Assembly: GCA_965228895.1 (NCBI GenBank)
Contig: OZ245842.1
Span: forward strand, 640,001-704,000
Reading direction: 5' to 3'
DNA length: 64,000 bases
Source: Alphaproteobacteria bacterium
GTDB lineage: Bacteria > Pseudomonadota > Alphaproteobacteria > SP197
Shown here: one piece after another, positions 12,050 through 30,324 of the stretch
How positions within the stretch are numbered: the stretch's first letter is position 1
How the letters are laid out: every line of letters begins with the position of its first letter
Translations under genes and position numbers: made by a program
Notes under the pieces: model-generated
The model's database searches: none
Told to the model about the DNA's origin: nothing
The model's input: the letters and a program-made list of their open reading frames with translations, nothing else

Positions 12050-12473
12050 CAAACGCGATCAGGTCGAAGCGCTCTATCCGGCCAGCGAAAAACAGCAGGA
12101 TCGATTGACCACACCCGGCGGCCACACACTCAGCGATCTGACACTGCCGAACGTGTTGGCGGGAGGGCTTGGGACCGGTGATCTCGGTATCTCACCGGAT
12201 GCCTTGCGCCTGCAACGCGATGTCGCCGAGGCGACCGGCCGGTCTTGTTTGGCAGAGAACTTCGAGCGCGGTGCGGAACTGACCGGTGTCTCTCAGGACG
12301 AGATCTTCGCGACCTACAATCTGTTGCGTCCGGGACGCGCCGAAAGCAAACAGGAGCTTCTCGACCTCGCGCGGCGCTATCGTGACGAACACAACGCGCC
12401 CGAGATCGCCGGTCTGATCGAAGACGCCGCGGAAACGTACGAGAGACGTGGGCTGTTTCGTACCCGCTACTAG
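12042..12473 (+). CDS. Diol/glycerol dehydratase small (gamma) subunit
   Basis: YP..EK, TPGG..L..LTL, LAENFERGAEL, YNLLRP, AAETYERRGL; overlaps the upstream gene. Confidence 0.9.
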   Translation: MADKRDQVEALYPASEKQQDRLTTPGGHTLSDLTLPNVLAGGLGTGDLGISPDALRLQRDVAEATGRSCLAENFERGAELTGVSQDEIFATYNLLRPGRAESKQELLDLARRYRDEHNAPEIAGLIEDAAETYERRGLFRTRY

Positions 12474-12534
12474 TTAGCGAGGGCGCCGACGACGCCTATC
12501 AATTGCCCAACATCAACGTCTGGGGAGGAAACCG

Positions 12535-12936
12535 TTGGTTACGCATGAGAGTTTCACCAAGTGGCTCGACGCCTATGGCAGTGCCTGGGTTAACCAGAAC
12601 CCGGACGGCACCCTGGCTCTCTTCACCGATGACGCCACCTATATGTACACGCCGTTCCACAAGATCATGAAAGGCAAGGACGAGATTCGCCGCTACGTCG
12701 AGAAGGGCGCCGTTGGTCTACAGGAGGATATCGAATTCGACTACGAGGTCCTGGCCGTCACGGACGCGTACGGTATTAACCGATGGAAAGCGGCCTTGAC
12801 GTGGAAGGAGACCGGCGAGCGCCTCCACTTTGACGGCATCTATCAGGTCTTCTTGAACGACGACAACCTATGCCATCGCTTCGACGAGTGGTGGCATGCA
12901 AATCCACCGCTACCCGAAGACAACGCACCGGAATAG
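12535..12936 (+). CDS. SnoaL-like/NTF2-fold protein
   Basis: WLDAYGSAW, LFTDDATY, G.DEIRRY, FDEWW pattern; RBS gagga before TTG. Confidence 0.75.
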   Translation: MVTHESFTKWLDAYGSAWVNQNPDGTLALFTDDATYMYTPFHKIMKGKDEIRRYVEKGAVGLQEDIEFDYEVLAVTDAYGINRWKAALTWKETGERLHFDGIYQVFLNDDNLCHRFDEWWHANPPLPEDNAPE

Positions 12937-12971
12937 GGACTTTCGGCTGGTGATGCCGCGTTACAATGCAC

Positions 12972-14504
12972 TCAAGCGATCGCGCCGACGACGCGTACGC
13001 GGGCGCGCAGGCTGTTGCCCGGCATATAGGCAAGCGGCAGGTCCTCAACCTCGACCAACTCCAGGCTTTCGGCATCCGCGCCCGCCTCGACCGCACGTCT
13101 TTCGGCGATACCACGCGCCTCGGCGATAGCGTCTTCGCGCGACAGACCTTGAAAGATCTGGTCGCACTCACCGGAGATCTGGGCAATCGCAGCGCCGACC
13201 GCATTGGCGACCTCGCCGTGTTCGACATGGATGACGTCGCTGACGCCGGCAATCTGATCAGGCACCAGAAAGGCGCCGCCGCCGACGGCAATGACCGGCA
13301 CGTCGCCGGCTTCGGTCTTCATGCGGTCAATTGCGACCGCGGTCATCTCGCGCATGGCCGCTATTGTTTCCTCGACCATCGCCTTGGGCAGGTCATCGAC
13401 CTTGTCGCGATCACCCAGGTCAATCAGGCCCTGGGCAACGGCGATGTCGGTTGCCGTCAGGTCGGGCCCGCCAAAGACGAGCCCGCGCTCGGTCAGCCGG
13501 TAGCCCGTACTCTCGGGGCCGATGGTGAGGGGATCTCTACCAATGAGCGTGCCGCCGCCGAGCGCGATGGAAAGTAGATCCGGCATCCGGAACAAGGTTC
13601 TGACACCGCCAATCTCGACGACGTTGTTGGCTTCGCGCGGAAAACCCGATTTCAGCATGCCGATATCGGTCGTTGTGCCGCCGACATCGACGACCATGGC
13701 GTCGGAAAGCCGGGACAGGAATGCCGCGCCGCGCATACTGTTGGTCGGGCCTGAAGCGAAACTGAACACCGGATACTTTTCGGCGACGTCGGCCAGCATC
13801 ACCGTGCCGTCGTTCTGGGTCAGGTAAAGCTGCGCTGTGATACCGCTGGTTTCGATCGCTTTGGTGAAGGCGGCTGTCGTCTTCTTGGCGAGGTCCTGCA
13901 GGCTGGCGTTCAGCAACGTGGCGTTCTCGCGTTCCAAGAGCCCGATGCGACCGAGCGCGCTGGAGCGGGTAACCGCGACGTCCGGACATTCCTCGGCAAG
14001 GATCGCGGCGGCCTGGTCCTCCAACTCGCTCGTCAGCGGTGAAAAAACAGAGGTGACGCCGACAGCCGTATAGCCGGCATCGCCAATGCGCTTTGCCGCC
14101 TCGCGCATGCCGGCTTCGTCAAACGGGGCAATGGGACGGCCGTCATACTCGTGGCCGCCCTGCAGCATGACGATCTCGCCCCGGACCTCCTCAGCGAGAT
14201 CGTCCGGCCAATCGATGAACGGCTCCAATGATGCGCTGGCCGGCAGGCAGATGCGAATGGCCGCGACCTTCGCGACGTCGCGCCGCTGGGCAACGGCGTT
14301 GGTGAAATGCGTGGTGCCGATCATGACGGCATCCAGGCCGGTCGGGTCGGCCGATGTCTGGGCCAAGACCTGCTTCAGGGCCTTGGTAATGCCCGACATC
14401 ACGTCTTCGGTCGTCGGCGTCTTGACCGAGCCGACGATGACATCGTCCTCGACCAGGACCGCGTCCGTGTTGGTGCCGCCGACGTCGATGCCGATGCGTT
14501 TCAT
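12972..14504 (-). CDS. Hydantoinase/oxoprolinase A-family protein (short type usually linked to DUF917)
   Basis: GIDVGGTNTD, SGPTNSMRGA, VDVGGTTTD, VANAVGAA. Confidence 0.9.
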   Translation of the reverse strand: MKRIGIDVGGTNTDAVLVEDDVIVGSVKTPTTEDVMSGITKALKQVLAQTSADPTGLDAVMIGTTHFTNAVAQRRDVAKVAAIRICLPASASLEPFIDWPDDLAEEVRGEIVMLQGGHEYDGRPIAPFDEAGMREAAKRIGDAGYTAVGVTSVFSPLTSELEDQAAAILAEECPDVAVTRSSALGRIGLLERENATLLNASLQDLAKKTTAAFTKAIETSGITAQLYLTQNDGTVMLADVAEKYPVFSFASGPTNSMRGAAFLSRLSDAMVVDVGGTTTDIGMLKSGFPREANNVVEIGGVRTLFRMPDLLSIALGGGTLIGRDPLTIGPESTGYRLTERGLVFGGPDLTATDIAVAQGLIDLGDRDKVDDLPKAMVEETIAAMREMTAVAIDRMKTEAGDVPVIAVGGGAFLVPDQIAGVSDVIHVEHGEVANAVGAAIAQISGECDQIFQGLSREDAIAEARGIAERRAVEAGADAESLELVEVEDLPLAYMPGNSLRARVRVVGAIA

Positions 14505-15607
14505 GCTGCGTCCTTCCCATTCGTCAGGGGGTGAGGGGAGTGATAGTCCATGTCATAGCCGAACGCCCGTGGCCCGACCACTTTGAGGGCGTGGGGCGTG
14601 GTCAGGACCGGTGCGGCGGGCAGTGAGACGATGACGACACGCTGGCCGTAGCGGATCGATTCCGTGCCGATCGCTTCGCCGTTGACCGCATCCAGAATGC
14701 AAATCAGATCGGGCACCATGACGCGGATCTCATTGTCGATGCTGCCGATCGTGAACTCGTTTTGAAAGTCGACGTCGAAGGTCTGACCGGCATAGCCGTC
14801 ACTTCCCGCGATGCGTGCCTTGCCCCGCACGAAGCCGTCCGTCGTGCGCCGGGCGACATCGACCACCTTGCCGCTGAACAAACGTAGACCGGCTTCGGCA
14901 TCAAGTACCGCATCACTGGGGTCCAGGTGACGACGCCGGGCCTCGGTGACCGCGCGGCCCAGGCGTATGGCGCGGCTGATGGAGCCGATGACGGCGTGGT
15001 CGCGAATCTGACGGCCGGTGCGCGGCGGTTTGCAGGTCGCGATCATCGCGCCGGTTTCCGTACAAAGCTTTCGGCCGATCCGCTCGGTCCATCGCGCGCT
15101 CGCGGTCTTCAGCAGCAGGACCTCGTTGTCACGGATGTCGGCCATGGCGATCGGATAAAGCGGCAGGTCGGCAATGACGAAGCTGGACATCTGCATTTCC
15201 GGGAAGGCGCGCCCGCGCGGGTCGGCGTCAAGCAGAGGAATATCCAACAGGGCCGCAACGACCAGAGGCAGAATGCCGTTTTCACCACCGATCTCCGACG
15301 ACATGACGGCGCGGAACGGCCGGCCCGTCAGATCCTGCATCATCTCGATAGGCCGGCAGATCTGCGCGGGATCGGGCAGTCGTTCCTTGGTGACCAGCGG
15401 CGCACCCATGAAACCGACCTCGGCGACCAGATCGTCGTTATCGAGGTCACATGGCTCGATCATTCCGACCCGCTTGCCCTCGCCGTAGAGTTTCTGAATG
15501 TTCAGCAGCTCGAGATAAGGATGGGTCCCACCACCGGTCCCCAAAATGCCCGTGCCGATCGCCAGAGCGGGCAGGTCATCGGCTTCGATGGGACGACGGC
15601 CCGTCAT
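14501..15607 (-). CDS. DUF917-family protein (paralog 3)
   Basis: GTGGG, MGAP, EIGGENG, DADPRGRAFPE, FQNEF, VPDLIC, VGPRAFG. Confidence 0.85.
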   Translation of the reverse strand: MTGRRPIEADDLPALAIGTGILGTGGGTHPYLELLNIQKLYGEGKRVGMIEPCDLDNDDLVAEVGFMGAPLVTKERLPDPAQICRPIEMMQDLTGRPFRAVMSSEIGGENGILPLVVAALLDIPLLDADPRGRAFPEMQMSSFVIADLPLYPIAMADIRDNEVLLLKTASARWTERIGRKLCTETGAMIATCKPPRTGRQIRDHAVIGSISRAIRLGRAVTEARRRHLDPSDAVLDAEAGLRLFSGKVVDVARRTTDGFVRGKARIAGSDGYAGQTFDVDFQNEFTIGSIDNEIRVMVPDLICILDAVNGEAIGTESIRYGQRVVIVSLPAAPVLTTPHALKVVGPRAFGYDMDYHSPHPLTNGKDAA

Positions 15608-16698
15608 GGGTCTGTTCCGAACAGCGACACGTAGTCGATGTCGTATCCGAAGGCGCGCGGGCCAACGAAGCTGAGACCGGCGTCGGAGGTCAGGATATCG
15701 GCGGCGGCAATCGCAACGATGCCAACGCGCAAACCATACCGAATGGTCTCGGTCCCGATCGCTTCGCCGGTATCGGCATCGAGGATGCAGATGAGGTCGG
15801 GCACCATCACCTTCAGCGCGCTATCGATCCAGGCGATGGTGAACTCGTTCTGAAAATCAACGTCGAAGATCTGACCTTCAAAATCATCCTGACCTTCAAT
15901 CCGGGCGCGCCCGCGCACGAAACCTGCCGTGGTTTGCCGCGCGACATCGACGACCTTGCCGCGGAACAGCAACAGGCCGTCTTCGGACTCCATGACCGCG
16001 GCGATGGGATCCGTGTGGGCCTTGCGTGCGCGGCGCACGGCACCGCCCAGCCGAATGGCGCGGCTGACGGTGCCGTGAACCGCATGGTCCTTGATCTCGC
16101 GCCCGGTTCGCGGCGGCCGGCACGTTGCGGCGATCGCACCCATCTCGGTGCAGAGGCGCCGGTTGATGCGCTCGACCCAGAGCGGCCCGCCGGCCTTCAT
16201 CATCAGGACCTCATTGTCGCGGATATCGGCCATGGCGAAGGGATAGAGCGGCAGGCCGCGAATCACGAAGCTCGACATCTGCATTTCGGGGAAGGCCCTG
16301 CCCATGCAATCGGCATCGACCACCGGGAGGTTCAGGAGAGCGGCGACCAGGAATGGCAAGACGCCGTTCTCCGCGCCGACTTCGCCCGCCATGACCGCAC
16401 TGAAGGTGGCGCCGGTCGCCTGGCGCATCATCTCGACCGGCCTGAGCGTGTGATGGGGATCGGGAAGGCGTTCCTTGGTGACCAGCGGCGCACCCATGAA
16501 GCCGAGTTCGGCAACGTGGTCATTGTCGTTGAGGTCATCGGGCGCAATCAGCGAAACACTGCGACCGGCGCGATAAAGCTTCTCGATGTTCAGCAGCTCG
16601 AAATAAGGATGGGTACCGCCGCCGGTTCCCAGAATGCCCGTCCCGATAGCGAGACTTCGCAAGTCATCGAAGGCCACAGGCGTGGTTGTCGCCATCAT
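15604..16698 (-). CDS. DUF917-family protein (paralog 2)
   Basis: Same motif set (DADCMGRAFPE); start ATG overlaps upstream TGA. Confidence 0.85.
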   Translation of the reverse strand: MMATTTPVAFDDLRSLAIGTGILGTGGGTHPYFELLNIEKLYRAGRSVSLIAPDDLNDNDHVAELGFMGAPLVTKERLPDPHHTLRPVEMMRQATGATFSAVMAGEVGAENGVLPFLVAALLNLPVVDADCMGRAFPEMQMSSFVIRGLPLYPFAMADIRDNEVLMMKAGGPLWVERINRRLCTEMGAIAATCRPPRTGREIKDHAVHGTVSRAIRLGGAVRRARKAHTDPIAAVMESEDGLLLFRGKVVDVARQTTAGFVRGRARIEGQDDFEGQIFDVDFQNEFTIAWIDSALKVMVPDLICILDADTGEAIGTETIRYGLRVGIVAIAAADILTSDAGLSFVGPRAFGYDIDYVSLFGTDP

Positions 16699-17780
16699 CA
16701 GCCGCCGTGAAGCGAGACGTAGTCGAGGTCGTAGCCGAAGGCGCGCGGTCCGACCCACTCAAGTCCTTCCGGCGACCGCTGCAGGGGATCGGCGGCCAAT
16801 GACAGGACGTCGACACGCTGGCCATAGCGAATGGTCTCGGTGCCCAGGGCCTCGCCGGTCACGCTGTCGAGAATGCAGATCAGATCGGGCACGGTGACGA
16901 CAACGTCGCCGTCACGCCAGCCGATCGAAAATTCGTTCTGGAAGTCGACGTTGAAAACCGATCCGGCAAAATCATCCAGACCGTCGATCTTGGCATAGCC
17001 GCGGACAAAGCCGTCGGTCATGCGCCGTGCGACGTCGGCCACTTTGCCGCGAAACAGCGCCACACCGTTTTCCGCCTGAAGCACAGCCTGGATCGGGTTT
17101 TCATGCCGCCGCCGCGCCGCGCGCACTGCCGCACCGAGCCTGAGCGCCCGTGATACCGAGCCCAGTATGGCGTGGTCCTTGATCTCACGTCCGGTGCGTG
17201 GCGCCGAACAGGTCGCGGCAATCGAGCCGACCTCGATGCAGGCCTGGCGTCCCAGCCGTTCCGTCCAGGTCGGGCTGGCGGTTTTGGTGAGGATGAGGTC
17301 GTTATCGCGGATATCACACATGGCAAATGGCGCCATGGAGAGGCCGCGAATGGCAAAGCTCGCCATCTGCGCTTCGGGAAACGCGCGGCCCATGGCATCC
17401 GCATCGACCATCGGCATGCCGGTGAGCGCACCGATGAGGAGCGGCAGCATCGAGTTTTCGCTGCCGATCTCGATCGACATGACGGCCTTGAAGGGCTTGC
17501 CCGTGAACGCCTCCATCAAGTGCAGAGGACGCACGGCGTGATCGGGATCGGGCAGACGTTCCTTGGTCACCAGCGGTGCGCCCATGAAACCAACCACCGC
17601 GATTGTGTCGTCGTCTTCCAGGTCCTGTGGGTCGACCATCGTGACGCGCTTGCCTTCGCCGTAGAGTTTCTGGATGTTGAGCAGCTCAAGATAGGGGTGA
17701 GTGCCGCCGCCGGTGCCGAGCACGCCCGCACCTGTCGCGAGGTCTTCGAGTTCGTCGGCTGTTATCTCGCGCAATGACAA
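16698..17780 (-). CDS. DUF917-family protein (paralog 1)
   Basis: Same motif set (DADAMGRAFPE); TTG start with ggagg RBS. Confidence 0.85.
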   Translation of the reverse strand: MSLREITADELEDLATGAGVLGTGGGTHPYLELLNIQKLYGEGKRVTMVDPQDLEDDDTIAVVGFMGAPLVTKERLPDPDHAVRPLHLMEAFTGKPFKAVMSIEIGSENSMLPLLIGALTGMPMVDADAMGRAFPEAQMASFAIRGLSMAPFAMCDIRDNDLILTKTASPTWTERLGRQACIEVGSIAATCSAPRTGREIKDHAILGSVSRALRLGAAVRAARRRHENPIQAVLQAENGVALFRGKVADVARRMTDGFVRGYAKIDGLDDFAGSVFNVDFQNEFSIGWRDGDVVVTVPDLICILDSVTGEALGTETIRYGQRVDVLSLAADPLQRSPEGLEWVGPRAFGYDLDYVSLHGG

Positions 17781-17789
17781 GGCGGCCTC

Positions 17790-18383
17790 CTAATCCAGTT
17801 TTTCGCCGCGGGACCAGCGTCGGGTCGCGGCAGCGACGCGGTGGCCGAACAAACGCGCCGTCAATCGATCGGTTTCGGGCGGCGAGGCGGGCGTCACCGC
17901 CTTGCCATCGGAATCCGCCATGGCGCCCAGGTAGCCGCCCTGGATGTTGTAACCTTCGGGCTTGCCCTGGCCGGTTCGGATGTCATTCATGGGATCCATA
18001 CCGACCCAGACCATGGCGTGCTGGGCGGCATAGACGGAGAGCGCCATCAAGACGCTTTGTTTGTCGCCGCTGGGTTCGCCGGCACAGGTGAAGCCGGCCG
18101 CGATCTTGTCGCGCCAACGCATGTCACCCCAGAAGGCGTCGGTCGCGTCCAGAAAAGCTTTCAGTTCGGCCGAGATGCCGCCGAAGTGGGTCGGACAGCC
18201 AAAGACGATGGCGTCGGCCTCGAACAGGCTGTCCCAGGGGACCGGATCGACGGCGACATCAACCAAAAGCGTCCTGACATCGCCGCCGTTCTCGGCGCCT
18301 TCTGCGATTTCCTTGGCGATGGCGGCGGTGTGACCCTTGCCGCTGTGAAAGCAGATGGCGATTGTGGTTTTTGCTTCGGCCAT
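17790..18383 (-). CDS. Flavodoxin-fold WrbA-like NAD(P)H oxidoreductase
   Basis: HSGKGHT, FGCPTHFGG, SGDK motifs. Confidence 0.85.
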   Translation of the reverse strand: MAEAKTTIAICFHSGKGHTAAIAKEIAEGAENGGDVRTLLVDVAVDPVPWDSLFEADAIVFGCPTHFGGISAELKAFLDATDAFWGDMRWRDKIAAGFTCAGEPSGDKQSVLMALSVYAAQHAMVWVGMDPMNDIRTGQGKPEGYNIQGGYLGAMADSDGKAVTPASPPETDRLTARLFGHRVAAATRRWSRGEKLD

Positions 18384-18391
18384 GGCAGGCG

Positions 18392-19471
18392 CTAGAGCAC
18401 GACGGCTGAGTCTGGCGCCCAGGTAAGACCGACCGACTGTCCCTGGGCAGGAACGGCGTCACCGGCATTGACGTTGACCTGCAGGCGTGAGCCGTCGGTG
18501 ACCGCAACGGTGACCTTGGCGACGGCGCCGGAAAAGACGACCTCGTCGATGGTGCCGTGAACGCCTTTGAAGCTGTCATCGGGGTTGCTGACAACCGTGA
18601 TGTTTTCGGGACGCACCACGAGGCGGACTTCGTCGCCCGATGCCAGTTTCCGGTGTTCGAAGTTGCGCGCCGCGAACACGTCGCCCGCCTGATTGCGCAC
18701 GGTCACTTGGTCGCCATCGATCCCGTCAACCGTGCAGATCAGCATGTTGGCTTCGCCCACGAAGTCGGCGACAAAGGCGCTTGCCGGGCGCTTGTAGACT
18801 TCTTCCGGTCCGGCAAGCTGCTCGACCTTGCCGAGGTTCATGACCGCGATCCGGTCGGACATGGTTAGCGCTTCTTCCTGATCATGGGTGACGTAGATGA
18901 ACGTGATGCCGACCCGACGCTGGATCTGCTTGAGCTCCGACTGCATTTGTTTGCGCAGCTTGAAGTCGAGCGCGCCCAGAGGTTCGTCGAGCAGAAGTAC
19001 GGCCGGTTCGACGATCAGCGCGCGGCCTAGCGCGACGCGCTGCTGTTGGCCGCCGGAAATCTCGCTGATGCGCCGCACGCCCATGCCCGGTAGGCCCAAG
19101 AGGTCGAGCATTTTTTCGACCCGTTCGGCGATTTCAGCTTTCCCCGTCTTGCGCATGCGCAACCCGAACGCAAGGTTCTGCGCCACGGTGCGGTGAGGGA
19201 AGAGGGCGTAGTCCTGAAACACCATGGACGTGTTGCGCTGATAGGGCGGCACGCCCAGAACCGATTGACCATGCAGGCGGATGTCCCCGGAGGTCGGCTC
19301 CAGGAAACCGCTGATCATCCGCAGCAAGGTCGACTTGCCGCAGCCTGACGGCCCCAGCAGCGTGACGAACTCGCCCTCCGCGATATCGATGCTGACATCG
19401 TCGACCGCGAGCACGTCATCGTAATACTTGACCACGTTCTCGACCGCGACGGCGGCCGTTGCTTCAACCAT
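18392..19471 (-). CDS. PotA-like ABC ATP-binding protein
   Basis: GPSGCGKST, ISGGQQQR, DEPLGALD, VTHDQEEA. Confidence 0.93.
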   Translation of the reverse strand: MVEATAAVAVENVVKYYDDVLAVDDVSIDIAEGEFVTLLGPSGCGKSTLLRMISGFLEPTSGDIRLHGQSVLGVPPYQRNTSMVFQDYALFPHRTVAQNLAFGLRMRKTGKAEIAERVEKMLDLLGLPGMGVRRISEISGGQQQRVALGRALIVEPAVLLLDEPLGALDFKLRKQMQSELKQIQRRVGITFIYVTHDQEEALTMSDRIAVMNLGKVEQLAGPEEVYKRPASAFVADFVGEANMLICTVDGIDGDQVTVRNQAGDVFAARNFEHRKLASGDEVRLVVRPENITVVSNPDDSFKGVHGTIDEVVFSGAVAKVTVAVTDGSRLQVNVNAGDAVPAQGQSVGLTWAPDSAVVL

Positions 19472-20327
19472 CGGCCTTGCCCTTCTGCGGCACGGTGTTG
19501 CGCATCTGACGCAGCATCCAGAGTTGGGCGGTTACGCTGAGCGTGATCGAGACGACCATGATAATGGTCGCGATGGCGTTGATTTCCGGCGACAACATGA
19601 AACGCAGACTGGTCCAGATTGCGATCGGCAACGTTTCATCGAACCCGGCGACAAACCACGCGACGATGAACTCGCCGAATGACTCGGTGAAGACCAGCAG
19701 AACGACGGCGATGATCGCCGGCGTCGTCATGGGCAGGATGATCTCGAAGAAGACACGCAGTTCGGACGCACCGAGATCCATCGCCGCCTCGATCAATGAC
19801 CGGCGAAAGCCCAGCAGACGCGAATAAAAGATCATCACGGCAAAACACAGCGTCAGCGTCGTGTGGGCGATGACGACGCCGATGCCGCCCATGAGCTCCG
19901 GAGAAAAGCGGAACAAAAGCAGCAGGCTGATGCCGATGACCATCTGGGGAATGATGATGGGTGAGAGGATCAGACCGAACACGATCGCCTTGCCGCGGAA
20001 CGGCCGCCACGCGAGCACCATGGCGGCGGGCATGCCGATGGCTGTCGCGACGACTGCCGTCACCAAGGCGATCCATGTGCTCAGCCACAGCGACTCCATC
20101 AGCGGCTCGTCGTTGAGCGCTTCGTCGAACCAGCCGAGTGTCAGGCCCTCGATCGGCAGCGCCGGGATCTGCTTGTCATTGAACGCAAAGAGGATGATCA
20201 CGAAGATCGGCAAATAGAAGAAAATATAGATCAGCGACACATAGGAAATGCCGAGAACGCGGCCGGTCTTGCCGCCGCCCGAACGATCGCCGCGGCGCGG
20301 CGAGGGGTTGTGATCGATGACCGCCAT
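19464..20327 (-). CDS. PotC-like ABC permease
   Basis: EAAMDLGA, TLP motifs; likely start MAVIDH at 20327 overlapping upstream stop. Confidence 0.88.
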   Translation of the reverse strand: MAVIDHNPSPRRGDRSGGGKTGRVLGISYVSLIYIFFYLPIFVIILFAFNDKQIPALPIEGLTLGWFDEALNDEPLMESLWLSTWIALVTAVVATAIGMPAAMVLAWRPFRGKAIVFGLILSPIIIPQMVIGISLLLLFRFSPELMGGIGVVIAHTTLTLCFAVMIFYSRLLGFRRSLIEAAMDLGASELRVFFEIILPMTTPAIIAVVLLVFTESFGEFIVAWFVAGFDETLPIAIWTSLRFMLSPEINAIATIIMVVSITLSVTAQLWMLRQMRNTVPQKGKADG

Positions 20328-21238
20328 CAGACCACATCCTCCATCTTCACCCACCGGAAGAGCGCGGCCAGGATCGCGAGAATGATGACCAGCAGAACGA
20401 CGGAAAGCGCCGCGCCGCCGGGCCAGTTCTGCGACGTCTCGAACTCCATGATGATGGCTTGCGAGATCAGCAGGTCCTTGCCACCGCCAAGCAGCTGCGG
20501 CACGACAAAGTCGCCGACCGAAAAAATGAAAGTGAAGACGGCGCCGACCACGAGCCCGGGAATGCAGAGCGGGAAGGTGACTTCGAAAAAGGCGCGCAGC
20601 CGGGTGGCGCCCAGGTCGGTCGCCGCGTCGAGCCACGAATCCTGCACCTTGTCGATGCTGGTATAGAGCGGCAGGATAAAGAAGGGCAGGAACGAATAGA
20701 TCAACCCGATGGCCGTCGCGACGGGCGAATAGAGCAGGAACGACAGGGGTTCATCGAGCACGCCGCCCAGCACCATGCCGGAATTGATGAACCCGCGCTC
20801 GCCGAGCAGCAGTTTCCAGGCGTAGGCGCGCAGGATGAGGCTGGTCCAGAACGGGATGATCACCATGATCAACAGCAACACGCGCCACGCGCCCGACTTC
20901 TTGGCGATGAAGTAGGCGATGGGGTAGGCGAGGATGGCGCAGACAATGGTGACGGCGACGGCGACTTCGAGCGACAGAATCAGCGCGTTGAACAGCAGCG
21001 GGTTTTCGAAGATCTGGGCGTAGTTGTAGAGCGTGAACGTGTAATCCATGCGGTAGTCGATCAGACGCCAGAAGCTGTAGATCGACAGCATGCCCATGGG
21101 CACCACGAAGAAGATGATCTGCCACAGAACGACGGGTCCAAGGCCCATCACGGACTTGAACCAGCCGCGCGCCAGAAGTGATCGGCGGGCCTGCGGTCGC
21201 GCCGCCGTGTCCGGCGCTGCTGCGTCTACCGTGCTCAT
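20327..21238 (-). CDS. PotB-like ABC permease
   Basis: PFWTSLILRAYAW, DAATDLGA, PQLLGG. Confidence 0.9.
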   Translation of the reverse strand: MSTVDAAAPDTAARPQARRSLLARGWFKSVMGLGPVVLWQIIFFVVPMGMLSIYSFWRLIDYRMDYTFTLYNYAQIFENPLLFNALILSLEVAVAVTIVCAILAYPIAYFIAKKSGAWRVLLLIMVIIPFWTSLILRAYAWKLLLGERGFINSGMVLGGVLDEPLSFLLYSPVATAIGLIYSFLPFFILPLYTSIDKVQDSWLDAATDLGATRLRAFFEVTFPLCIPGLVVGAVFTFIFSVGDFVVPQLLGGGKDLLISQAIIMEFETSQNWPGGAALSVVLLVIILAILAALFRWVKMEDVV

Positions 21239-21252
21239 GGACCTATGCTGCC

Positions 21253-21990
21253 CTAGGCGGCGTCGAAGCGATACTCCGCCCGCGCGTTGGGCGGTGTTGG
21301 ATAGGCGATCTTGCTGTGCCGCATGCCGGTCGAGACCAGCGCCTCGGTCAGCTTCATGGTCGCCTTCACCGGATCAATCACGGGGACATAAGCGCCGAGC
21401 CGCTGCTTCAGCGATTCCTCGATCTTCGCGGCCATGTCGACGCCGGTGCCCGTGCAGCCCATGACGATGACCTCCGCGCCGTCGTCTTCGACCGCCGCGA
21501 CCGCCTGGTCGACCGCCTTGGGCACGCGGTCGAGCCCGAAATCGAGGACGCCGGCGCCGACCTCGCGAACCGAGGCCAGCCGTTCACCCATGCCGACCTG
21601 GGCGGCAAGCTTGCGCATCATGGGGAACAGCTCGCGCTGGGTGATCATGATGGTGAAGCGGCCACCCAGGAGGCTCGCCATATGCAACGCGGCTTCGCCT
21701 TCGCCGACCACGGGGATCGACACCAGCTCCTTGGCGCCGGCGGCACCGGGATCGCCGAAACAGGTGATCATGCAGCCGTCGGCGCCATCGGCCTCGGCGT
21801 CGCGGATCAGACGCATGACCTCAGGCTGGGCGAGCGCCATGTCGTATTCGGACTCGATGCTGTTGGTCCCGTTCGCAACACAAGCGACCGTCAAGTCGAC
21901 GCCCGGAGAGGCGCAGGCTTGATATTCAAGCCTGGCCTTCTCCGCGAGAGCATCGGAGTGGAGGACCGGGACAACGATACGGATGTCCAT
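21253..21990 (-). CDS. Asp/Glu/hydantoin racemase-family protein (copy 1)
   Basis: Catalytic Cys motifs CFGDPG and MGCTG, VPVIDP; start MDIRIV with gagga RBS. Confidence 0.88.
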   Translation of the reverse strand: MDIRIVVPVLHSDALAEKARLEYQACASPGVDLTVACVANGTNSIESEYDMALAQPEVMRLIRDAEADGADGCMITCFGDPGAAGAKELVSIPVVGEGEAALHMASLLGGRFTIMITQRELFPMMRKLAAQVGMGERLASVREVGAGVLDFGLDRVPKAVDQAVAAVEDDGAEVIVMGCTGTGVDMAAKIEESLKQRLGAYVPVIDPVKATMKLTEALVSTGMRHSKIAYPTPPNARAEYRFDAA

Positions 21991-22006
21991 GGTTTCCTCC
22001 GACCGA

Positions 22007-23131
22007 TCAGGCAGCCTTGAACGTCTGCCAGGCCAAACGCCAGGCCTCTTCGTCGACCGGCGCGCGGTTGAGTTTGGACCGCAGGCCCCACTCGTCGATC
22101 TTGTCGAGGTTGAGGATGCGGAACTGCTCGGCGGTAATGTAGTCGGCCACCTTGGCGTTGCAGACCGCAATCTTCTGGCGGCCCCAGGCGAACTTGGAGA
22201 GCGCCTCGGCGCTGGTCATGTAGTTCAGGTACTGCTTGGCCGCGTCGACGTTTTGCGAACCCTGAACAATCTGCAGCGACTCCGTCCACATCGCGCCGCC
22301 CTGCTCGGGGATCGTCAGCGCGATGTCGTAACCGGCTTCCTGGACCGCAATCGACGTCTGATTGCTGCTGCTGCCCCACACGATCCACGCATCCTGGTTG
22401 GCAAGGTCGGTCTTGCCGGCGCCGACCTCGTTGTGGATGGCGCGCAGGTTGGGTTTGATCTCAACCAATCGTGCGACGATCTCATCAAGGGCTTCACCGC
22501 TTGCTTCTTCCGGTTTCTCCATGCCCAACCATTGGCCGGCCTGCCACAGGTAGAGCTCGCCCCAGTCGATGATGCTGATGCGATCGGCAAACTTGGAATC
22601 CCAGATGACATTGGCATCTAGAGCGTCGGCTTCCGACAGTTTGTCGCGCCAATGGACGATGCCGTTGATGCCCCAGCGTGTCGTGACGCCATAGAGCTGG
22701 TCGCCGACCAAACAATCGTAACAGTCCTTGAACGGCTCGAACATTTCCTCGAGGTGCGGAAAGTCGGCCCGGTCAAGCGGCATGGTCAGTCCGCTTTGGG
22801 CAAACTTGTCGGTCCACACGGTGTCCGGGTTGACGACATCGAACTGAATCGCGCCGGCGCGAAGCTGATCGAGCTGGTTGGCGTTGCTGCTCGCCGTCTT
22901 CACGTTGACGGTGATGCCGGTCGCCTCCTCGAACGGGCGCACGATGTCGGGATCGTCATAGCCCTCCCACGCCAGGACGTTGACGACACCTTCGGCGCGT
23001 GCCGGCGCCGGCCGGCCGACTTGGGATGCGATGGCGGCAAACATCGCGGCATTGGCGCCGTCGCGCATCAGGTGCCGGCGCGACAGCCGCTTCTTCAACA
23101 GGTCACGAAGCTCTTTTGTGCTGGATGCCAT
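22007..23131 (-). CDS. PotD/PotF-like ABC substrate-binding protein, Tat-exported
   Basis: SRRHL Tat motif, AWEGY, FEEATGI, PEQG. Confidence 0.88.
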   Translation of the reverse strand: MASSTKELRDLLKKRLSRRHLMRDGANAAMFAAIASQVGRPAPARAEGVVNVLAWEGYDDPDIVRPFEEATGITVNVKTASSNANQLDQLRAGAIQFDVVNPDTVWTDKFAQSGLTMPLDRADFPHLEEMFEPFKDCYDCLVGDQLYGVTTRWGINGIVHWRDKLSEADALDANVIWDSKFADRISIIDWGELYLWQAGQWLGMEKPEEASGEALDEIVARLVEIKPNLRAIHNEVGAGKTDLANQDAWIVWGSSSNQTSIAVQEAGYDIALTIPEQGGAMWTESLQIVQGSQNVDAAKQYLNYMTSAEALSKFAWGRQKIAVCNAKVADYITAEQFRILNLDKIDEWGLRSKLNRAPVDEEAWRLAWQTFKAA

Positions 23132-23287
23132 GTGTGTCTCTCCCCCTGGTCAGATAACGCCGCCCGGGAATCGGGCAGACCGCTGACATTCTCGCCCGGT
23201 CCGAACAACCATCTGCGGTTGCTCTACGGAGCGATTCCCGGCCTGATTTCGAAGACCGGTTCGCCGGTCAACCGGTCGGAACTGCGC

Positions 23288-23303
23288 TACAAAGCGCTTT
23301 GTA
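23288..23303. promoter_or_regulatory. Putative LacI-family operator
   Basis: Perfect palindrome TACAAAGCGCTTTGTA with LacI-type AAnCGnTT core, between the lacI-like gene and the SBP operon. Confidence 0.7.
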
Positions 23304-23413
23304 TTGGTGAATTGTTTGATCCAACTTGCAAGGCTGTCAAGGATTCTTGCAATTCTCTCGCGCCACGTGGTCGTTCGGCACCGGCGCCAACGGCCAAGGA
23401 CGAAGGTTTCGTT

Positions 23414-24424
23414 CTACATGCGGCTCGCGCCCCGTCGGTCGGTGCTCGCGCGCACCACAAGCTCGACGGAGACCAGTTTTGCACGTTCGCCGCCGCCGTC
23501 ATTCACGAGGTCGAGCAGCATCTCGACCGCCAGGTCTCCCAGCCTATCGGGAAAGACGCGAATGCTGGTCAGCGGCGGAATTGAACTGGCGGCAAGCACG
23601 GTCTCGCCTTCGCCGACCACGCCGAGGTCATCGGGTATGGCGATGCCGAGGTCGCTGGCCGCCTGCAGAACAGAAAGCGCCAGACTGTCTGTGCTGGCGA
23701 TGATGACATCGGGTCGTTCCGCGGCAGTCAATATCTCACGGGCGACGTCATAGGTTTTCTGGCTGAAAAAGTTGTCGCACCAAACGACCCGGCCCGGCAT
23801 CCCCCGCGCTTCGGTTTCTTTGCGAAATGCCTGCTCAACATCCGACTCGTAAGAGATAGTCGGTTCCTTGGTGAGCAGGAGTGGTCGCCGGTAACCCTGT
23901 TCGTCGAGATGCACGAAAAGGTCCGTGATCGCCTTGGTGTGGTCGTTGTCGACCCAGGGGATGTCTTTGCGATCCATCCAACGTCCGACCGTGATGACGG
24001 GCAGGTCGCGGTCGAGAAAGGCTGCGAGCCGCGCGTCGTTTGCGGCCGGATCGGCAACGATGACACCGTCGAGTTGCCCGAGCAATTCACCCTGGGCGAC
24101 GCCATTCTCGCCAAGCGCGTTGGGGATGAGAAGAAAGCCATACCCGACCTTGCCGGCGGCAGCGGACAGACCTTCGAGCAGCGCTGGGAAGTAAGGGTTG
24201 CGGTGCAGCAAGCTGCCTTCGGCTGGAAAACACACACCCAGGATCATCGAGCGCCCGGTCGCCAGCGCCTTGGCGCTCAGCCGGGGGCTGTAATCGAGAT
24301 CCCTGGCGGCCTCCATGACCCGCGCGACCGTATCCGCCGCCACGTGCCGGTTGCCCGAATAGACATGGGACACCGTGGTGATCGAAACGCCGGCCGCTGC
24401 CGCGACGTCATAGATGCTGGCCAT
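23414..24424 (-). CDS. LacI-family transcriptional regulator
   Basis: SIYDVAAAAGVSITTVSHV HTH, PPLTSI. Confidence 0.93.
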   Translation of the reverse strand: MASIYDVAAAAGVSITTVSHVYSGNRHVAADTVARVMEAARDLDYSPRLSAKALATGRSMILGVCFPAEGSLLHRNPYFPALLEGLSAAAGKVGYGFLLIPNALGENGVAQGELLGQLDGVIVADPAANDARLAAFLDRDLPVITVGRWMDRKDIPWVDNDHTKAITDLFVHLDEQGYRRPLLLTKEPTISYESDVEQAFRKETEARGMPGRVVWCDNFFSQKTYDVAREILTAAERPDVIIASTDSLALSVLQAASDLGIAIPDDLGVVGEGETVLAASSIPPLTSIRVFPDRLGDLAVEMLLDLVNDGGGERAKLVSVELVVRASTDRRGASRM

Positions 24425-24575
24425 AGTCCGGGCACCTTGCCCCGGTGATGCTCAAATGTCTAACCGAGGTATCCGACCCCGACTCGACACTCACGCAAGC
24501 GGCTGGACTCGCCGGTCGGACCCGTGTTGAGGTGGTCGCACGCACCGGTAGAACGGTGACACGAGGGAGGGTGTG

Positions 24576-25325
24576 ATGCGAATTCGCGTACTGGTTCCCG
24601 TCCTCTATTCCGACGCATTGGTGAAGAAAGCGGCCGATGAATACCGCGCTGCCGCGGCGCCGGGAACGGAGATATCGGTGGCCGCGCTGGCGAATGGGAC
24701 GCGTACCATCGAGGCCGATTTCGACATTAGTCTTGCCGAGCCGGACACCATGCGTTTGACCGAGGTCGCCGAAAGAGACGGCATCGACGCGTGCACCGTC
24801 GCCTGTTTCAGCGACCCCGGCGTTGCCGGTGCGCGTGAGCTGGTGAGTATCCCGGTTATCGGAGAAGGTCAGGCGTCACTGACCCTCGCAAGTCTGCTCG
24901 GCACGCGCATCTGCGTGGTGACGACCTGGAATCAGTGTGTGCCGCGCATCAAGCGGCTGGTCGGCCAGCACGGCTTTGCCGAGAAGGTCGCCGCGATAAG
25001 GGCGGTCAATCTCGGTGTCATGGAACTCGACGAAACGTCGGTGCCCAGGATTGTCGCCATGACGGCCGATGCCGTGCGCACCGATGGCGCCGATGTCGTC
25101 GTCATGGGTTGCACGGGTACGGGCCTGGACATGGCCGGCGCCGTCGAATGTGGACTCGAAGAAGCGGTTGGTGCCCGCGTTCCGGTAATCGATCCGGTCA
25201 AGGCCGCGATCAAACTCGCCGAAACCTGTGTCGCGACGGACATGCGCCATAGCAAGACTGCCTGGCCGACGCCACCCCATGACCGACAAGAGTATCGTCA
25301 TCTCACGGCCGAGGCGGCCGCTTAG
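24576..25325 (+). CDS. Asp/Glu/hydantoin racemase-family protein (copy 2)
   Basis: CFSDPG, MGCTG, VPVIDP; ggagg RBS. Confidence 0.88.
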   Translation: MRIRVLVPVLYSDALVKKAADEYRAAAAPGTEISVAALANGTRTIEADFDISLAEPDTMRLTEVAERDGIDACTVACFSDPGVAGARELVSIPVIGEGQASLTLASLLGTRICVVTTWNQCVPRIKRLVGQHGFAEKVAAIRAVNLGVMELDETSVPRIVAMTADAVRTDGADVVVMGCTGTGLDMAGAVECGLEEAVGARVPVIDPVKAAIKLAETCVATDMRHSKTAWPTPPHDRQEYRHLTAEAAA

Positions 25326-25328
25326 GTC

Positions 25329-26453
25329 ATGCCGGCAGGCCGACTGTCATCGCGTGAGGATATCGAGGACTTCACCCGGGGCACCGACTTTCTGTCCGCT
25401 TCGGGCGGTGGGCCGACAACGGAAGCGCGCGGGTTTCTGGGTGAGCTGCTGGAGCAGGGAACATCGATTGCCTGGTGCGACATCGACGCCATCGACGATG
25501 ACGCGCGGGTGTGTTGCACGTTCTTTTCTGGGTCGGTGGCACCAAGCCGCTATGACCGAAGCGGACCGGAACGCGAGTTCGGCATCACCACGACGGATCC
25601 CCATCCGACGGTCTTGGCGGTCTTGGAACTGGAACGCCAACTTGGTCATGAGTTTGATGTCATCGTGCCGATCGAAATTGGCGGCAACAACACAGGCCAC
25701 GCCCTGGCGACCGCTGCGGCACTCGGCAAAACGGTGCCTGATGGCGACTTCGCCGGACGTGCGATTCCAGAAGCGACCTGCATCACCCCGCACATAGCCG
25801 GCCTCGCCATGACGCCGCTGGCGTGCGCGAACTACTACGGCAACCGCGTCTTTCTTCGTTCGTCCCAGAACAACGAAATGGCGGAACGCGTGACCAAGCA
25901 GCTGGCGGTCGCGTCATTCGGCTGTGTCGGTTGCGCCGCGTTTCCCATGTCAGGCAAGGACGCGAAGAAACTGGCGGTGCCCGGCACGTTGACACGGTCA
26001 CTGCTGATCGGCCAGGCCATCCGCGAGGCGCAAACGGCCGGGCGCGATCCGCTGGACGAAGTCGCATCGCGGGTCGACGGTGTCCACGTGTTGTTTCGCG
26101 GCCAGATCGTCAAACGATGGTGGGAAAGCCGAGACGGCTACATGTGGGGCGAGCATGTGTTGGCTGGTCTCGACGCCAGCGAAGGCCACGAACTGAAGCT
26201 GTGGTTCAAGAACGAAAACCATGTCTCCTGGCTCGACGGTGAGCCTTGGGTCAGCGGACCGGACGTTCTCGAACTGGTCGATCTCGGCAGCGGCGAGCCC
26301 GTCGTCAACAGCTTTGCCGAGGAAGGCCAGAAGGTCGGCGTCATGGGTGTTCGGCGCTGTGCCCAATTTGGTGGTGAGGCGGGCATCGCAGCGCTCGGCC
26401 CGCGCCATTGGGGTTTCGACTGGGACTACCGGCCGATCGAGGACCTAATCTGA
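25329..26453 (+). CDS. DUF917-family protein (divergent subfamily)
   Basis: SGGG, IEIGGNN, DGDFAGRAIPE, WFKNEN, LGPRHWG. Confidence 0.82.
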   Translation: MPAGRLSSREDIEDFTRGTDFLSASGGGPTTEARGFLGELLEQGTSIAWCDIDAIDDDARVCCTFFSGSVAPSRYDRSGPEREFGITTTDPHPTVLAVLELERQLGHEFDVIVPIEIGGNNTGHALATAAALGKTVPDGDFAGRAIPEATCITPHIAGLAMTPLACANYYGNRVFLRSSQNNEMAERVTKQLAVASFGCVGCAAFPMSGKDAKKLAVPGTLTRSLLIGQAIREAQTAGRDPLDEVASRVDGVHVLFRGQIVKRWWESRDGYMWGEHVLAGLDASEGHELKLWFKNENHVSWLDGEPWVSGPDVLELVDLGSGEPVVNSFAEEGQKVGVMGVRRCAQFGGEAGIAALGPRHWGFDWDYRPIEDLI

Positions 26454-27362
26454 CGCGCTCAAGAAGCGCGACAACGTGTCGTAGTAGGCATCGGGTTCCT
26501 CGAAAAAGGGGATGTGACCGCTCTCCTCGAAGACGGTTAGTTGTGCGTGCGGCAATGCATCGGCGATTAGACCCGCTTCGTGCGGCGTGCACCAGCCGTG
26601 CCGTCCGACCATAACGCAAGCCGGTACGTCGAGGGCCGCGAGCCGGTCTAGACATGACCAGCCGGCGATGACGCCGGTGAAGCGGAACTCGTTGGGTCCC
26701 TGCAGGTGGTCATAGAGCGGTTTGTTGAGCGACTCTACGGAGTGGCGGAACGGCTCCGGCCACGGGTCAAGCCGGCAAACATGGCGCGCGAAGATTTCCA
26801 TCATCGCGGCGTCGTAGTCCGGGTGGTCCGTCGTGCCGTCGGCTTCGCGGCGCTTCATCATCGCGACCGTCTCCGGCGCGAGCGCACCACGGAGGCGTTC
26901 CGCCTCATCCAGATGCACATTGATGTCACCGATGGCCGTCAGGACGATCAAGCTCTTGAGGTTCACTCGCCGAACAAACGCTGCTTCGATGGCCAGCATG
27001 GCGCCCCAGTCCTGGCCCAAAAGATGTATGTCGCCGAGTTCGAGCGCGGTGCGCACCGCGTCGATCTCATCGGCATAACGTTCGAGCGTCCAAAGCGACG
27101 GATCTGCTGGGTTGTCGGATTGACCGCATCCCAACTGGTCCCAGGACACGACCCTTCGGCCCCGGTCCGCGATCGGGCGGTGGCCTTCGAACAGGGCCTC
27201 GCACGACCACCCGGGACCGCCGGAGACCAGCATCAGCACCGGTCCGGATCCGCCGGTGTCGTAAACCGCGACCTTACCGCCGGGCACGTGCACGAAGCCT
27301 GATGGCGTCACGCTTCCAATCCTCACCCCATCCTGTGGCCCTTGGGGTGGAAGGATTGGCAT
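26445..27362 (-). CDS. Proline iminopeptidase/L-amino acid amidase-like alpha/beta hydrolase with atypical catalytic residues
   Basis: GGPG, DQLGCGQS, GPNEF, SGHIPFFEEP; nucleophile elbow reads GQDWG. Confidence 0.8.
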   Translation of the reverse strand: MPILPPQGPQDGVRIGSVTPSGFVHVPGGKVAVYDTGGSGPVLMLVSGGPGWSCEALFEGHRPIADRGRRVVSWDQLGCGQSDNPADPSLWTLERYADEIDAVRTALELGDIHLLGQDWGAMLAIEAAFVRRVNLKSLIVLTAIGDINVHLDEAERLRGALAPETVAMMKRREADGTTDHPDYDAAMMEIFARHVCRLDPWPEPFRHSVESLNKPLYDHLQGPNEFRFTGVIAGWSCLDRLAALDVPACVMVGRHGWCTPHEAGLIADALPHAQLTVFEESGHIPFFEEPDAYYDTLSRFLSASD

Positions 27363-27541
27363 CAATTCTCGTGAACGTCCATGGTGTCGGCCGCAACGAG
27401 AGTCGCATCAACTGCCGGCTGGCGCTTCCGCCGGCTTGACTCGGGAACCAGACACGAAAGAGATTGGGCCATGGTGACTAGAACGAACCGATGGGACACA
27501 CGGCGCGACGGCGCCGCTGTGATCCCGAATTGTGTGCTGAG

Positions 27542-30253: not shown

Positions 30254-30274
30254 GAGGTCACAATAACGCTTGTT

Positions 30275-30290
30275 AGTTACAGATGCAACT
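30275..30290. promoter_or_regulatory. Putative MarR operator
   Basis: Imperfect palindrome AGTTACAGATGCAACT followed by a second GTTACAGA half-site in the marR/hmgA gap. Confidence 0.5.
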
Positions 30291-30324
30291 GTTACAGAAG
30301 ATACCAGTTGAATGAGGACGTGCG

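Follow-up and report, generated by a model that had tools for sequence, protein, structure and literature searches.

What do four DUF917 genes, two hydantoin-type racemase genes, a gene for a HyuA-type ATPase and an ABC (ATP-binding cassette) importer do together when they share 14 kb of an alphaproteobacterial chromosome? The locus lies within a stretch of 64,000 nucleotides (the window hereafter; contig OZ245842.1, positions 640,001 to 704,000, assembly GCA_965228895.1, GTDB lineage SP197), and a first-pass annotation made from the letters alone had read its positions 12972–27362 as a LacI-centred module for the uptake and stereo-convergent breakdown of (thio)hydantoins or related heterocycles. 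We find that the core of the module is a pair formed by a short HyuA-type ATPase (HyuA-short) and DUF917, and we consider it somewhat better than an even guess that the whole is a catabolic uptake module, in which a chiral cyclic amide would be imported, racemised and then opened by an ATP-using HyuA-short/DUF917 system.

The HyuA-short/DUF917 pair

The genes of the pair, in window coordinates, are:

12972–14504, minus strand: HyuA-short, a HyuA-type (ASKHA) ATPase of 510 amino acids without a HyuB partner (PF05378 + PF01968)
14501–15607, minus strand: DUF917a (PF06032 + PF20906), its stop overlapping the HyuA start by 4 nt
15604–16698, minus strand: DUF917b (PF06032 + PF20906), start corrected to the ATG at 16698
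16698–17780, minus strand: DUF917c (PF06032 + PF20906)
25329–26453, plus strand: DUF917d, a divergent subtype (PF06032 + PF20906)

Gene identities were taken from the listing of open reading frames (ORFs) together with Pfam and NCBIfam profile scores, the Pfam matches covering 20 ORFs in the 9.8–29.8 kb part of the window. All four DUF917 copies score 113–172 bits over the N domain and 165–222 bits over the C domain, against Pfam cut-offs of 27. DUF917a, b and c are 64–67% identical to one another, DUF917d is 27% identical to DUF917a, and all four keep an acidic cluster made up of E105, D127, D129, R133, E137, E175, N283, E284 and D300. HyuA-short gives 131.9 bits on PF05378 and 90.7 bits on PF01968, the latter matched over profile positions 1–176 of 291, and its nearest solved structure is the N-methylhydantoinase 7hk5 (E 1.4e-23). 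At 510 residues it is shorter than a typical HyuA, which has about 690. The ATPase nevertheless looks intact, because the motif residues D7, G9, T11, T13, D14, D273, G275 and G276 are invariant in 58 orthologues. HyuB (PF02538) is absent from the Pfam matches of the 20 ORFs.

Three lines of evidence join the two proteins. First, 80 loci were gathered from species-representative genomes with DUF917c as the query, and HyuA-short stands beside DUF917 in 71 of them (70 at stricter limits); several of the loci without a neighbouring HyuA-short are short contigs. These loci come from Proteobacteria, Chloroflexota, Actinomycetota, Gemmatimonadota, Rokubacteria and one archaeon. Second, the two occur as one polypeptide: all 37 longer homologues of DUF917a (645–2000 amino acids, E ≤ 1e-20), mostly fungal but including a sea cucumber and a clam, have PF01968 together with PF06032, and 36 of them PF05378 as well. 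Third, a complex of HyuA-short and DUF917a is predicted with an ipSAE of 0.82 (runs 0.82, 0.84 and 0.81), the best of three controls reaching 0.00; the runs share at least 90% of their contacts, and the pLDDT (predicted local distance difference test score) of the partner is at least 87. In a benchmark of the ipSAE mark, 116 of 157 solved complexes reached it as against 2 of 215 mismatched pairs, counts that apply only roughly to a prediction built, as here, on alignments of our own making.

The predicted interface holds residues that are invariant or nearly so (E119, D121, F154 and G188 of HyuA; P70 and E75 of DUF917) among 58 HyuA and 62 DUF917 sequences. Of the 27 interface positions in DUF917a, 23 are retained by DUF917b and 23 by DUF917c, compared with overall identities of 66% and 62%, whereas DUF917d is identical at 6 of 27 and carries an 11-residue insert in the 69–81 loop, the main interface loop. 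The three tandem copies thus keep the HyuA interface predicted by the model, and DUF917d does not.

The AlphaFold2 model of DUF917a (pLDDT 92.3) superimposes on 2o3i with Z 40.4 and a root-mean-square deviation of 2.2 over 336 aligned residues, the next match having Z 5.1. PDB searches for DUF917 returned 2o3i alone, and no fold relatives beyond it were found (Foldseek, VIA), a result by which a link to HyuB is neither shown nor excluded. We know of no solved complex of the HyuA-short/DUF917 kind.

The module and its conservation

The remaining features of the region are:

12535–12936, plus strand: SnoaL-like (NTF2-fold) protein (PF12680)
17790–18383, minus strand: flavodoxin-fold FMN protein, WrbA-like (PF03358, 54.3 bits)
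18392–19471, minus strand: ABC ATPase of the PotA subfamily (TIGR01187, 377.5 bits, cut-off 355.6)
19464–20327, minus strand: ABC permease, PotC-like (PF00528), start corrected to the ATG at 20327
20327–21238, minus strand: ABC permease, PotB-like (PF00528)
21253–21990, minus strand: RacA, a two-cysteine racemase of the hydantoin/allantoin type (PF01177), start corrected
22007–23131, minus strand: periplasmic substrate-binding protein (SBP) with a PotD/PotF-like fold and an RR-type signal (PF13416)
23288–23303, no strand: 16-bp perfect palindrome TACAAAGCGCTTTGTA, a candidate operator ahead of the SBP operon
23414–24424, minus strand: LacI-family regulator (PF00356 + PF13377)
24573–25325, plus strand: RacB, a second two-cysteine racemase (PF01177)
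26445–27365, minus strand: alpha/beta hydrolase of the proline iminopeptidase (PIP) family with an altered triad (TIGR01250, 233.7 bits)

The gene list of the first-pass annotation (four DUF917, two racemases, hydantoinase-A, flavoprotein, importer, LacI and an odd hydrolase) was confirmed gene by gene and in place by Pfam and NCBIfam, the starts being shortened for three ORFs (RacA, PotC and DUF917b). The left border of the module moves outward, since the SnoaL-like gene belongs to it. Ten genes with overlaps or gaps of at most 16 nt form the minus-strand operon, in the transcription order SBP, RacA, PotB-like, PotC-like, PotA-like, flavodoxin-fold protein, DUF917c, DUF917b, DUF917a and HyuA-short. 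LacI (24424–23414) has the same orientation and is placed 282 bp upstream of the SBP gene, and RacB (24573–25325) and DUF917d (25329–26453) point away from it as a divergent arm; the hydrolase gene (27365–26445) is convergent with DUF917d, and the SnoaL-like gene with HyuA. GC content is even across the region (0.61–0.64). A second strain, taken from a different study, has contigs that are colinear with window positions 9001–29000 at about 97–99% identity (189 differences over 6410 bases, 45 over 1116 and 113 over 12530) and that are interrupted at the DUF917 repeats alone, so the arrangement is real and no assembly artefact.

From SnoaL to DUF917d the module is a real, conserved cluster that is independent of LacI. 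In a genome from another family of the same class (G115), the whole of it is found with gene order and orientation unchanged, the divergent placement of RacB and DUF917d included, at identities of 53–83% (SnoaL 83%, HyuA 73%, DUF917a 67%, DUF917b 70%, DUF917c 72.5%, flavoprotein 56%, PotA 71%, PotC 67%, PotB 79%, RacA 69%, SBP 70%, RacB 53% and DUF917d 63%). Next to it comes a convergent TetR gene; the two arms are not separated by LacI, and a PIP-like gene is absent. The DUF917 tree pairs the copies of G115 and the window as a with a (supports 99/96), b with b (88/92) and c with c (99/98), so that the triplication must be old and the three copies have been kept distinct. A separate triplication of DUF917 before a single HyuA-short is indicated by the tree in the Enhydrobacter/Reyranellaceae loci L043, L047, L048, L054 and L056. 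The one of these five that was annotated with Pfam, L047, also carries AroM, an FMN reductase, an FAD monooxygenase and a Pot-like importer; probes for the FMN reductase and FAD monooxygenase match all five loci, and the AroM probe L047 only.

Parts of the module recur on metagenome contigs. L133 carries SBP, RacB, DUF917d and TetR; L135 carries DUF917c, the flavoprotein (59%), PotA/C/B, RacA, SBP, DUF917d and TetR; L139 has DUF917d and TetR, and L132 a DUF917d-type gene with SnoaL. On L134 and L136 a d-type DUF917 lies in a Pot-like operon and HyuA-short is absent from the contig. In all, DUF917d orthologues were found in 2 of 401 genomes sampled from the class and at 11 metagenome loci. SnoaL orthologues stand beside HyuA in G115 (83%), in the sister species G002 (89%) and in L052 (66%), a locus in a metagenome-assembled genome of Pseudoxanthobacter that carries part of the module. 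Genes in related loci were called by a codon-position GC rule, the longest-ORF approach being unreliable in GC-rich DNA; the rule still overlooks a number of genes, among them the L052 permeases.

The two sister species, G001 and G002, match the window in four parts only, namely the diol dehydratase, HyuA, LacI and the start of the aminotransferase gene, to which G002 adds SnoaL and a remnant of DUF917a; the stretch from RacB through DUF917d to the hydrolase (about 24470–27428) is missing from both. In G002 (locus L026, 7095–7268), HyuA (93%) and SnoaL (89%) are intact and only the last 58 residues of DUF917a are left upstream. This remnant is what was left behind when the other genes of the operon were deleted. 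At the DNA level HyuA and SnoaL of the sister species are 82–84% similar to the window, as are the backbone genes (78–86%), and the ancestor of the genus therefore probably had the module, most of which the sister species lost.

Proposed function of the module

From this gene content, operon packing and conservation, from the adjacency and fusion of the HyuA-short and DUF917 genes and from the predicted interface of their products, we propose the following scheme by analogy. The SBP, presumably exported by a Tat-type (twin-arginine) route, and the Pot-like ABC transporter would import a small chiral cyclic amide, the stereoisomers of which would be interconverted by RacA and RacB. On the model of HyuA in oxoprolinases, HyuA-short would use ATP to activate the ring amide, and DUF917 would perform the hydrolytic step, standing in the place that HyuB holds in oxoprolinases and N-methylhydantoinases. 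A single HyuA-short could dock with any of DUF917a, b and c, which would differ in specificity, while DUF917d, probably acting independently of the ATPase, may use a related compound or the product. Accessory roles would fall to the flavoprotein and the SnoaL-like protein, and LacI would regulate the neighbouring aminotransferase-kinase operon and at most have been recruited to the module. The pairing may be chemically sensible: C–S hydrolysis at C2 of an (S-methyl)thiohydantoin by the known DUF917 enzymes would be formally like the hydrolysis of an O-phospho-imidate. The outline that had first been suggested, uptake and stereo-convergent breakdown of a chiral heterocycle, is thus a reasonable one in view of the uptake operon, the two racemases and the enzymes of ring-amide type; the thiohydantoin part of it is not retained.

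Which ring is opened is less readily answered. RacA and RacB (53% identical) score 129 and 121.5 bits on PF01177 and match 3qvj with E-values of 2.3e-32 and 3e-31, respectively. The RacA motifs TCFGDPG and MGCTGTG align with the catalytic cysteines of allantoin racemase, and both racemases keep the two cysteines, aligned with those mutated in 3qvk. One could therefore think of classical hydantoin utilisation, in which the bacterium takes up 5-substituted hydantoins, racemises them and opens them to N-carbamoyl amino acids that are decarbamoylated elsewhere in the cell. The likeness of the racemases to solved hydantoin/allantoin racemases (E 1e-31 to 1e-32) speaks for it, as do the placement of HyuA in the hydantoinase/oxoprolinase family, with an N-methylhydantoinase as best solved relative, and the NCBIfam names by which the DUF917 family includes enzymes of thiohydantoin rings. 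On the other hand, the window contains neither HyuB nor a carbamoylase between 9 and 30 kb, an ErtE-type carbamoylase probe, which covers the M20 type only, matched none of the 80 loci, an ErtD-type cyclic amidohydrolase probe matched one, and no carbamoylase family occurs in 10 Pfam-annotated related loci. The commonest transporter partner, moreover, is a peptide-type SBP_bac_5 binding protein (22 of 80 loci). We regard the classical route as possible but unlikely.

A ring derived from a peptide, such as a 2,5-diketopiperazine or an N-substituted lactam, seems to us a more likely substrate than a classical 5-substituted hydantoin, because no carbamoylase was found with the M20-type probe or in the annotated loci, because SBP_bac_5 is the commonest partner, because locus L058 has a nitroreductase like that of cyclodipeptide oxidases (CDO) beside AroM, DUF917 and HyuA, and because of the parallel with OpaE, which comes from the same family of racemases and epimerises a nonribosomal-peptide heterocycle or its derivatives, according to the accessible text of two reports (PMC12661438, PMC7530659). 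Genes for racemases, DUF917 and AroM are reported to be enriched in CDO clusters that lack a cyclodipeptide synthase (non-CDPS clusters), where DUF917 is left uncharacterised in the accessible part of the paper (Andreas and Giessen, Nat Commun 2024, PMC11055893). At other loci it is usually an AroM-family protein that fills the racemase slot (18 of 80). In L050 (8932–9879) and L058 (13079–14221) the AroM domain is fused to a LuxR/GerE DNA-binding domain, and a probe for this fusion matched 8 of the 80 loci; the racemase fold appears to be reused there as a putative ligand sensor in AroM-LuxR fusion regulators. Taken to its most specific form, the argument would make HyuA-short and DUF917 a new class of ATP-dependent 2,5-diketopiperazine hydrolase, with one ATPase, three interchangeable DUF917 proteins that set specificity, an ATPase-independent d-type and two racemases that widen the range to all stereoisomers. 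We put this forward tentatively, as a proposal that may well prove wrong in this specific form.

Several points weigh against the view that the module opens a peptide-like lactam with ATP. The chemistry of HyuA-short/DUF917 is assigned by analogy, and the substrate, the ATPase activity and the complex are all predicted, the last with a benchmark that is a rough guide only. Within the window's own family, HyuA orthologues are often solitary: at HyuA identities of 47–93%, a full DUF917 is adjacent in 4 of the 16 loci fetched and a remnant in one more, and the genomes usually carry one DUF917 away from HyuA (25 of 33 match at E ≤ 1e-40). The window's genome itself has a fifth DUF917 at 4.499 Mb (G000:C1:4498320-4500358; locus L109, 8320–10358), which is translationally coupled to an S33-type alpha/beta hydrolase and not to HyuA, with no HyuA-short nearby. 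Given these lone HyuA orthologues and this fifth copy, linkage between HyuA and DUF917 is not obligatory. DUF917 does not resemble HyuB in fold, the model falling from Z 40.4 with 2o3i to Z 5.1 with the next match, and its replacing HyuB is therefore a functional guess. The nearest relatives of the racemases favour a hydantoin-like ring, the restriction of the carbamoylase probe to the M20 type limits its bearing on that point, and the roles given below to residues of PotF come from the wider literature on PotF. Finally, the hydrolase at the right end of the region gives no support to a dipeptide product, because its triad is changed and its gene is not conserved with the module.

The fifth DUF917 copy, which is common to most of the family, adjoins an amidohydrolase gene and opine/sarcosine-oxidase-like genes.

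Alternative chemistry

HyuA-short and DUF917 could instead form an ATP-dependent carboxylase, kinase or isomerase that acts on an imported non-cyclic compound. The HyuA family does include carboxylases, with matches to acetophenone and acetone carboxylase subunits, the DUF917 fold is unique and without a characterised ATP-linked member, and simple hydrolysis leaves the flavoprotein and SnoaL-like partners unexplained. The co-occurrence of hydantoin-type racemases here, and of AroM elsewhere (18 of 80), points rather to an acidic C–H next to a ring carbonyl, and the characterised DUF917 enzymes, going by their NCBIfam names, use rings of the hydantoin type. Such other chemistry appears doubtful to us.

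DUF917 paralogues and thiohydantoin desulfurases

The first-pass annotation had gone further and named thiohydantoins, possibly cross-fed ergothioneine intermediates or isothiocyanate-amino-acid adducts, as substrates to be taken up and desulfurised. DUF917 is indeed the family of the desulfurases NF058529 and NF058532, with which the window copies share Pfam family and two-domain architecture (PF06032 + PF20906), and all four copies match the two models weakly (E-values 1e-8 to 1e-31). Their scores, however, are 31.9–94.8 bits on NF058529 and 47.8–109.5 bits on NF058532, against cut-offs of 440 and 450. True NF058529 members were found in 3 of the 401 genomes sampled from the class. All three adjoin an above-cut-off thiourocanate hydratase and an aromatic ammonia-lyase, one of them ErtD and ErtE as well, and none has a HyuA-type gene beside it; this ergothioneine-type setting, without HyuA-short, differs from that of the window copies. 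The sequences differ too. The three true desulfurases that we compared read GQNGxSS and DAVGDxRAHPT where the window copies and other HyuA-linked DUF917 proteins read EIGGxN and DADxxGRAFPE. Five residue positions set them apart: the desulfurases have no counterparts of E75 and E175, and have Q, V, T and the like at E105, D129 and E137. In the tree they form a separate long branch (length 7.47).

A genome-wide search for the ergothioneine route likewise gave no desulfurase (none at E ≤ 1e-80) and no thiourocanate hydratase above cut-off, the sole urocanase of the genome scoring 698.5 bits against 930. Neither an aromatic ammonia-lyase nor a urocanase was found in the window, in agreement with what had been noted at first, and the aromatic lyases of the genome all lie megabases away: aromatic-lyase/urocanase matches are at 2.90, 3.39, 3.96 and 3.98 Mb and the window is at 0.640–0.704 Mb. 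The DUF917 copies were rejected as thiohydantoin desulfurases on their scores, the five differing positions and the different gene context, and we hold a thiohydantoin, ergothioneine or isothiocyanate-adduct substrate to be highly improbable. The Pfam name 'S-Me-THD-like' alone is unsafe evidence for ergothioneine metabolism.

Transporter and binding protein

Of the transporter proteins, the PotA-like ATPase passes the polyamine subfamily model TIGR01187 (377.5 against 355.6 bits), and the permeases stay below the equivalog cut-offs (PotB-like 215 against 348 bits, PotC-like 191.5 against 326). The best solved relatives of the SBP are PotD/PotF-type proteins, with scores of 67.1 bits on PotF (cut-off 636) and 52 bits on PotD (cut-off 582). 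In an alignment to PotF, the offset of which was verified (the PotF chain has W, Y, S, E, W and D where these are expected), the residues of the aromatic box W37, Y40, W244 and F276 correspond to W, Y, W and W, and the acidic residues E185, D247 and D278 to L, S and E, so that one of the three is kept. These three we take to be the residues that hold the amino groups of putrescine. To judge from the aligned residues, the SBP may fit a neutral ring ligand better than a polyamine. An ordinary polyamine importer lying among unrelated enzyme genes, for which the PotA score and the PotD/PotF-type relatives could be cited, has hardly any claim left, with an SBP at 52–67 bits against 582–636, permeases under their cut-offs, two of the three acidic ligand residues replaced, and transporter and enzyme genes that form one operon and are still together in G115 and on L133–L135.

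At the N-terminus of the SBP (window 22990–23131, minus strand), the RR motif LSRRHLM precedes a hydrophobic stretch, which suggests Tat-type export.

Regulation

The description of the module as LacI-centred does not hold. LacI is present in none of the 80 related loci, and the regulator that accompanies the module elsewhere is a TetR protein (G115, L133, L135 and L139). The sister species, moreover, keep LacI with no module genes beside it. In both of them a LacI orthologue (87–89%) lies divergently beside an aminotransferase-kinase pair (91–92% and 74–75%, respectively) across a spacer of about 160–200 bp. The corresponding genes of the window, at 27491–29790 (plus strand), encode a class-III aminotransferase followed by an APH-type (aminoglycoside phosphotransferase) kinase, and the pair resembles the fused PRK06148/PRK06149. 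The pairing in the sister species and the absence from the 80 related loci make LacI a resident gene.

Between the LacI and SBP genes lies the palindrome TACAAAGCGCTTTGTA (23288–23303), whose 14-bp core occurs once in the 5.5-Mb genome and whose centre, AAGCGCTT, we take to be of the type found in LacI-family operators. The core was not found in the LacI-aminotransferase spacers of G001 and G002 with up to two mismatches, and sites with one mismatch show no excess over the control genome-wide in these two species. The equivalent spacer of G115 contains a different inverted repeat. LacI may plausibly have been recruited locally to the module in place of TetR.

The altered hydrolase, the flavoprotein and flanking genes

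What had been called an atypical amidase (26445–27365, minus strand) is present and is odd; it belongs, however, to the proline iminopeptidase family of alpha/beta hydrolases, with 233.7 bits on TIGR01250 (peptidase S33 family, cut-off 167.65), and the Ser and Asp of its triad are replaced. Compared with four solved PIPs, it has Asp for the nucleophilic Ser (GQDWGA as against GQSWGG/GSSYGG) and Gly for the catalytic Asp (RHGWCTP as against RHDEATP), and the His is kept. None of 13 homologues (38–49% identical, from 11 other loci) shares these changes, and all 13 keep Ser and Asp. The altered hydrolase gene, which is lineage-specific, is absent from G115 and from the 80 related loci. An Asp nucleophile is typical of epoxide hydrolases and haloalkane dehalogenases, and the protein may either carry a novel activity or be inactive.

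The name WrbA-like fits the flavoprotein in part: flavodoxin-like fold families pass, and the WrbA models do not reach their cut-offs (71 against 141 and 61.9 against 132.5 bits).

An ORF at 27362–27958 (minus strand), without a family match and lying partly over the 5′ end of the aminotransferase gene, is unlikely to be a true gene. To the left of the module, window positions 9782–12473 (plus strand) encode a B12-type diol/glycerol dehydratase, with the large and medium subunits in one 755-residue ORF (PF02286 + PF02288) followed by the small subunit. In the sister species G001 the dehydratase is followed by genes for a 2-oxoglutarate oxygenase, a cupin-HTH (helix-turn-helix) protein, a desaturase and SBP_bac_5, which are missing in the window. 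At 29810–31692, a MarR-family regulator gene is divergent from one for homogentisate 1,2-dioxygenase and looks unrelated to the module.

Relation to known systems and significance

The known lactam openers of the HyuA/HyuB type (N-methylhydantoinase 7hk5, 5-oxoprolinase 6yra, caprolactamase NF050156) resemble the window module in their A-type ASKHA ATPase, in the two-protein complex, which is a predicted one here, and in the uptake-operon setting of the module. They differ in that the window has no HyuB, the partner of its ATPase being DUF917, and in that one ATPase gene stands to three partner genes. Operons of the hyu type consist of a permease, a hydantoin racemase, a hydantoinase and a carbamoylase. 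The combination of a transporter, hydantoin-type racemases and a ring-opening enzyme is common to both; the window, however, has neither a cyclic-amidohydrolase hydantoinase nor a carbamoylase, and an ABC system in place of an NCS1 permease. The NF058529/NF058532 desulfurases, as described above, differ in score, in five residue positions and in context, which lies on the ErtD/ErtE side and without HyuA-short. Of the systems described so far, the HyuA/HyuB enzymes and the non-CDPS CDO-like clusters (PMC11055893) come closest, and neither offers a DUF917 partner for a HyuA that lacks HyuB. These clusters likewise combine a PF01177 racemase, DUF917 and transporter genes, and L058, with its CDO-like nitroreductase and AroM, can be compared to them; the region of the window has no CDO gene (AlbA/AlbB-like nitroreductase), and a partnership with HyuA-short is not described in the accessible part of that paper.

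Our literature search, which left many subscription papers outside its coverage, found no characterisation of HyuA-short/DUF917 or of DUF917, and no enzyme for diketopiperazine hydrolysis turned up in it. What the window adds is an orthologously conserved three-plus-one layout of DUF917 with one ATPase, a d-type DUF917 that seems to be independent of the ATPase, evidence for a swap of regulators, LacI for TetR, and a PIP-family protein with a rebuilt triad.

The HyuA-short/DUF917 pair extends from archaea to fungi and marine animals, with no measured function in the literature searched. The window offers a bacterial test bed for it, with one ATPase, three DUF917 partners, a fourth subtype, two racemases, a dedicated SBP and a single candidate operator, and the ligand of the SBP would reveal the substrate of the module. 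If that substrate is a diketopiperazine or a related stable lactam, the module would supply a missing step in the turnover of common peptide-derived rings, and the pair would be a second solution, besides HyuB, for ATP-driven amide hydrolysis.

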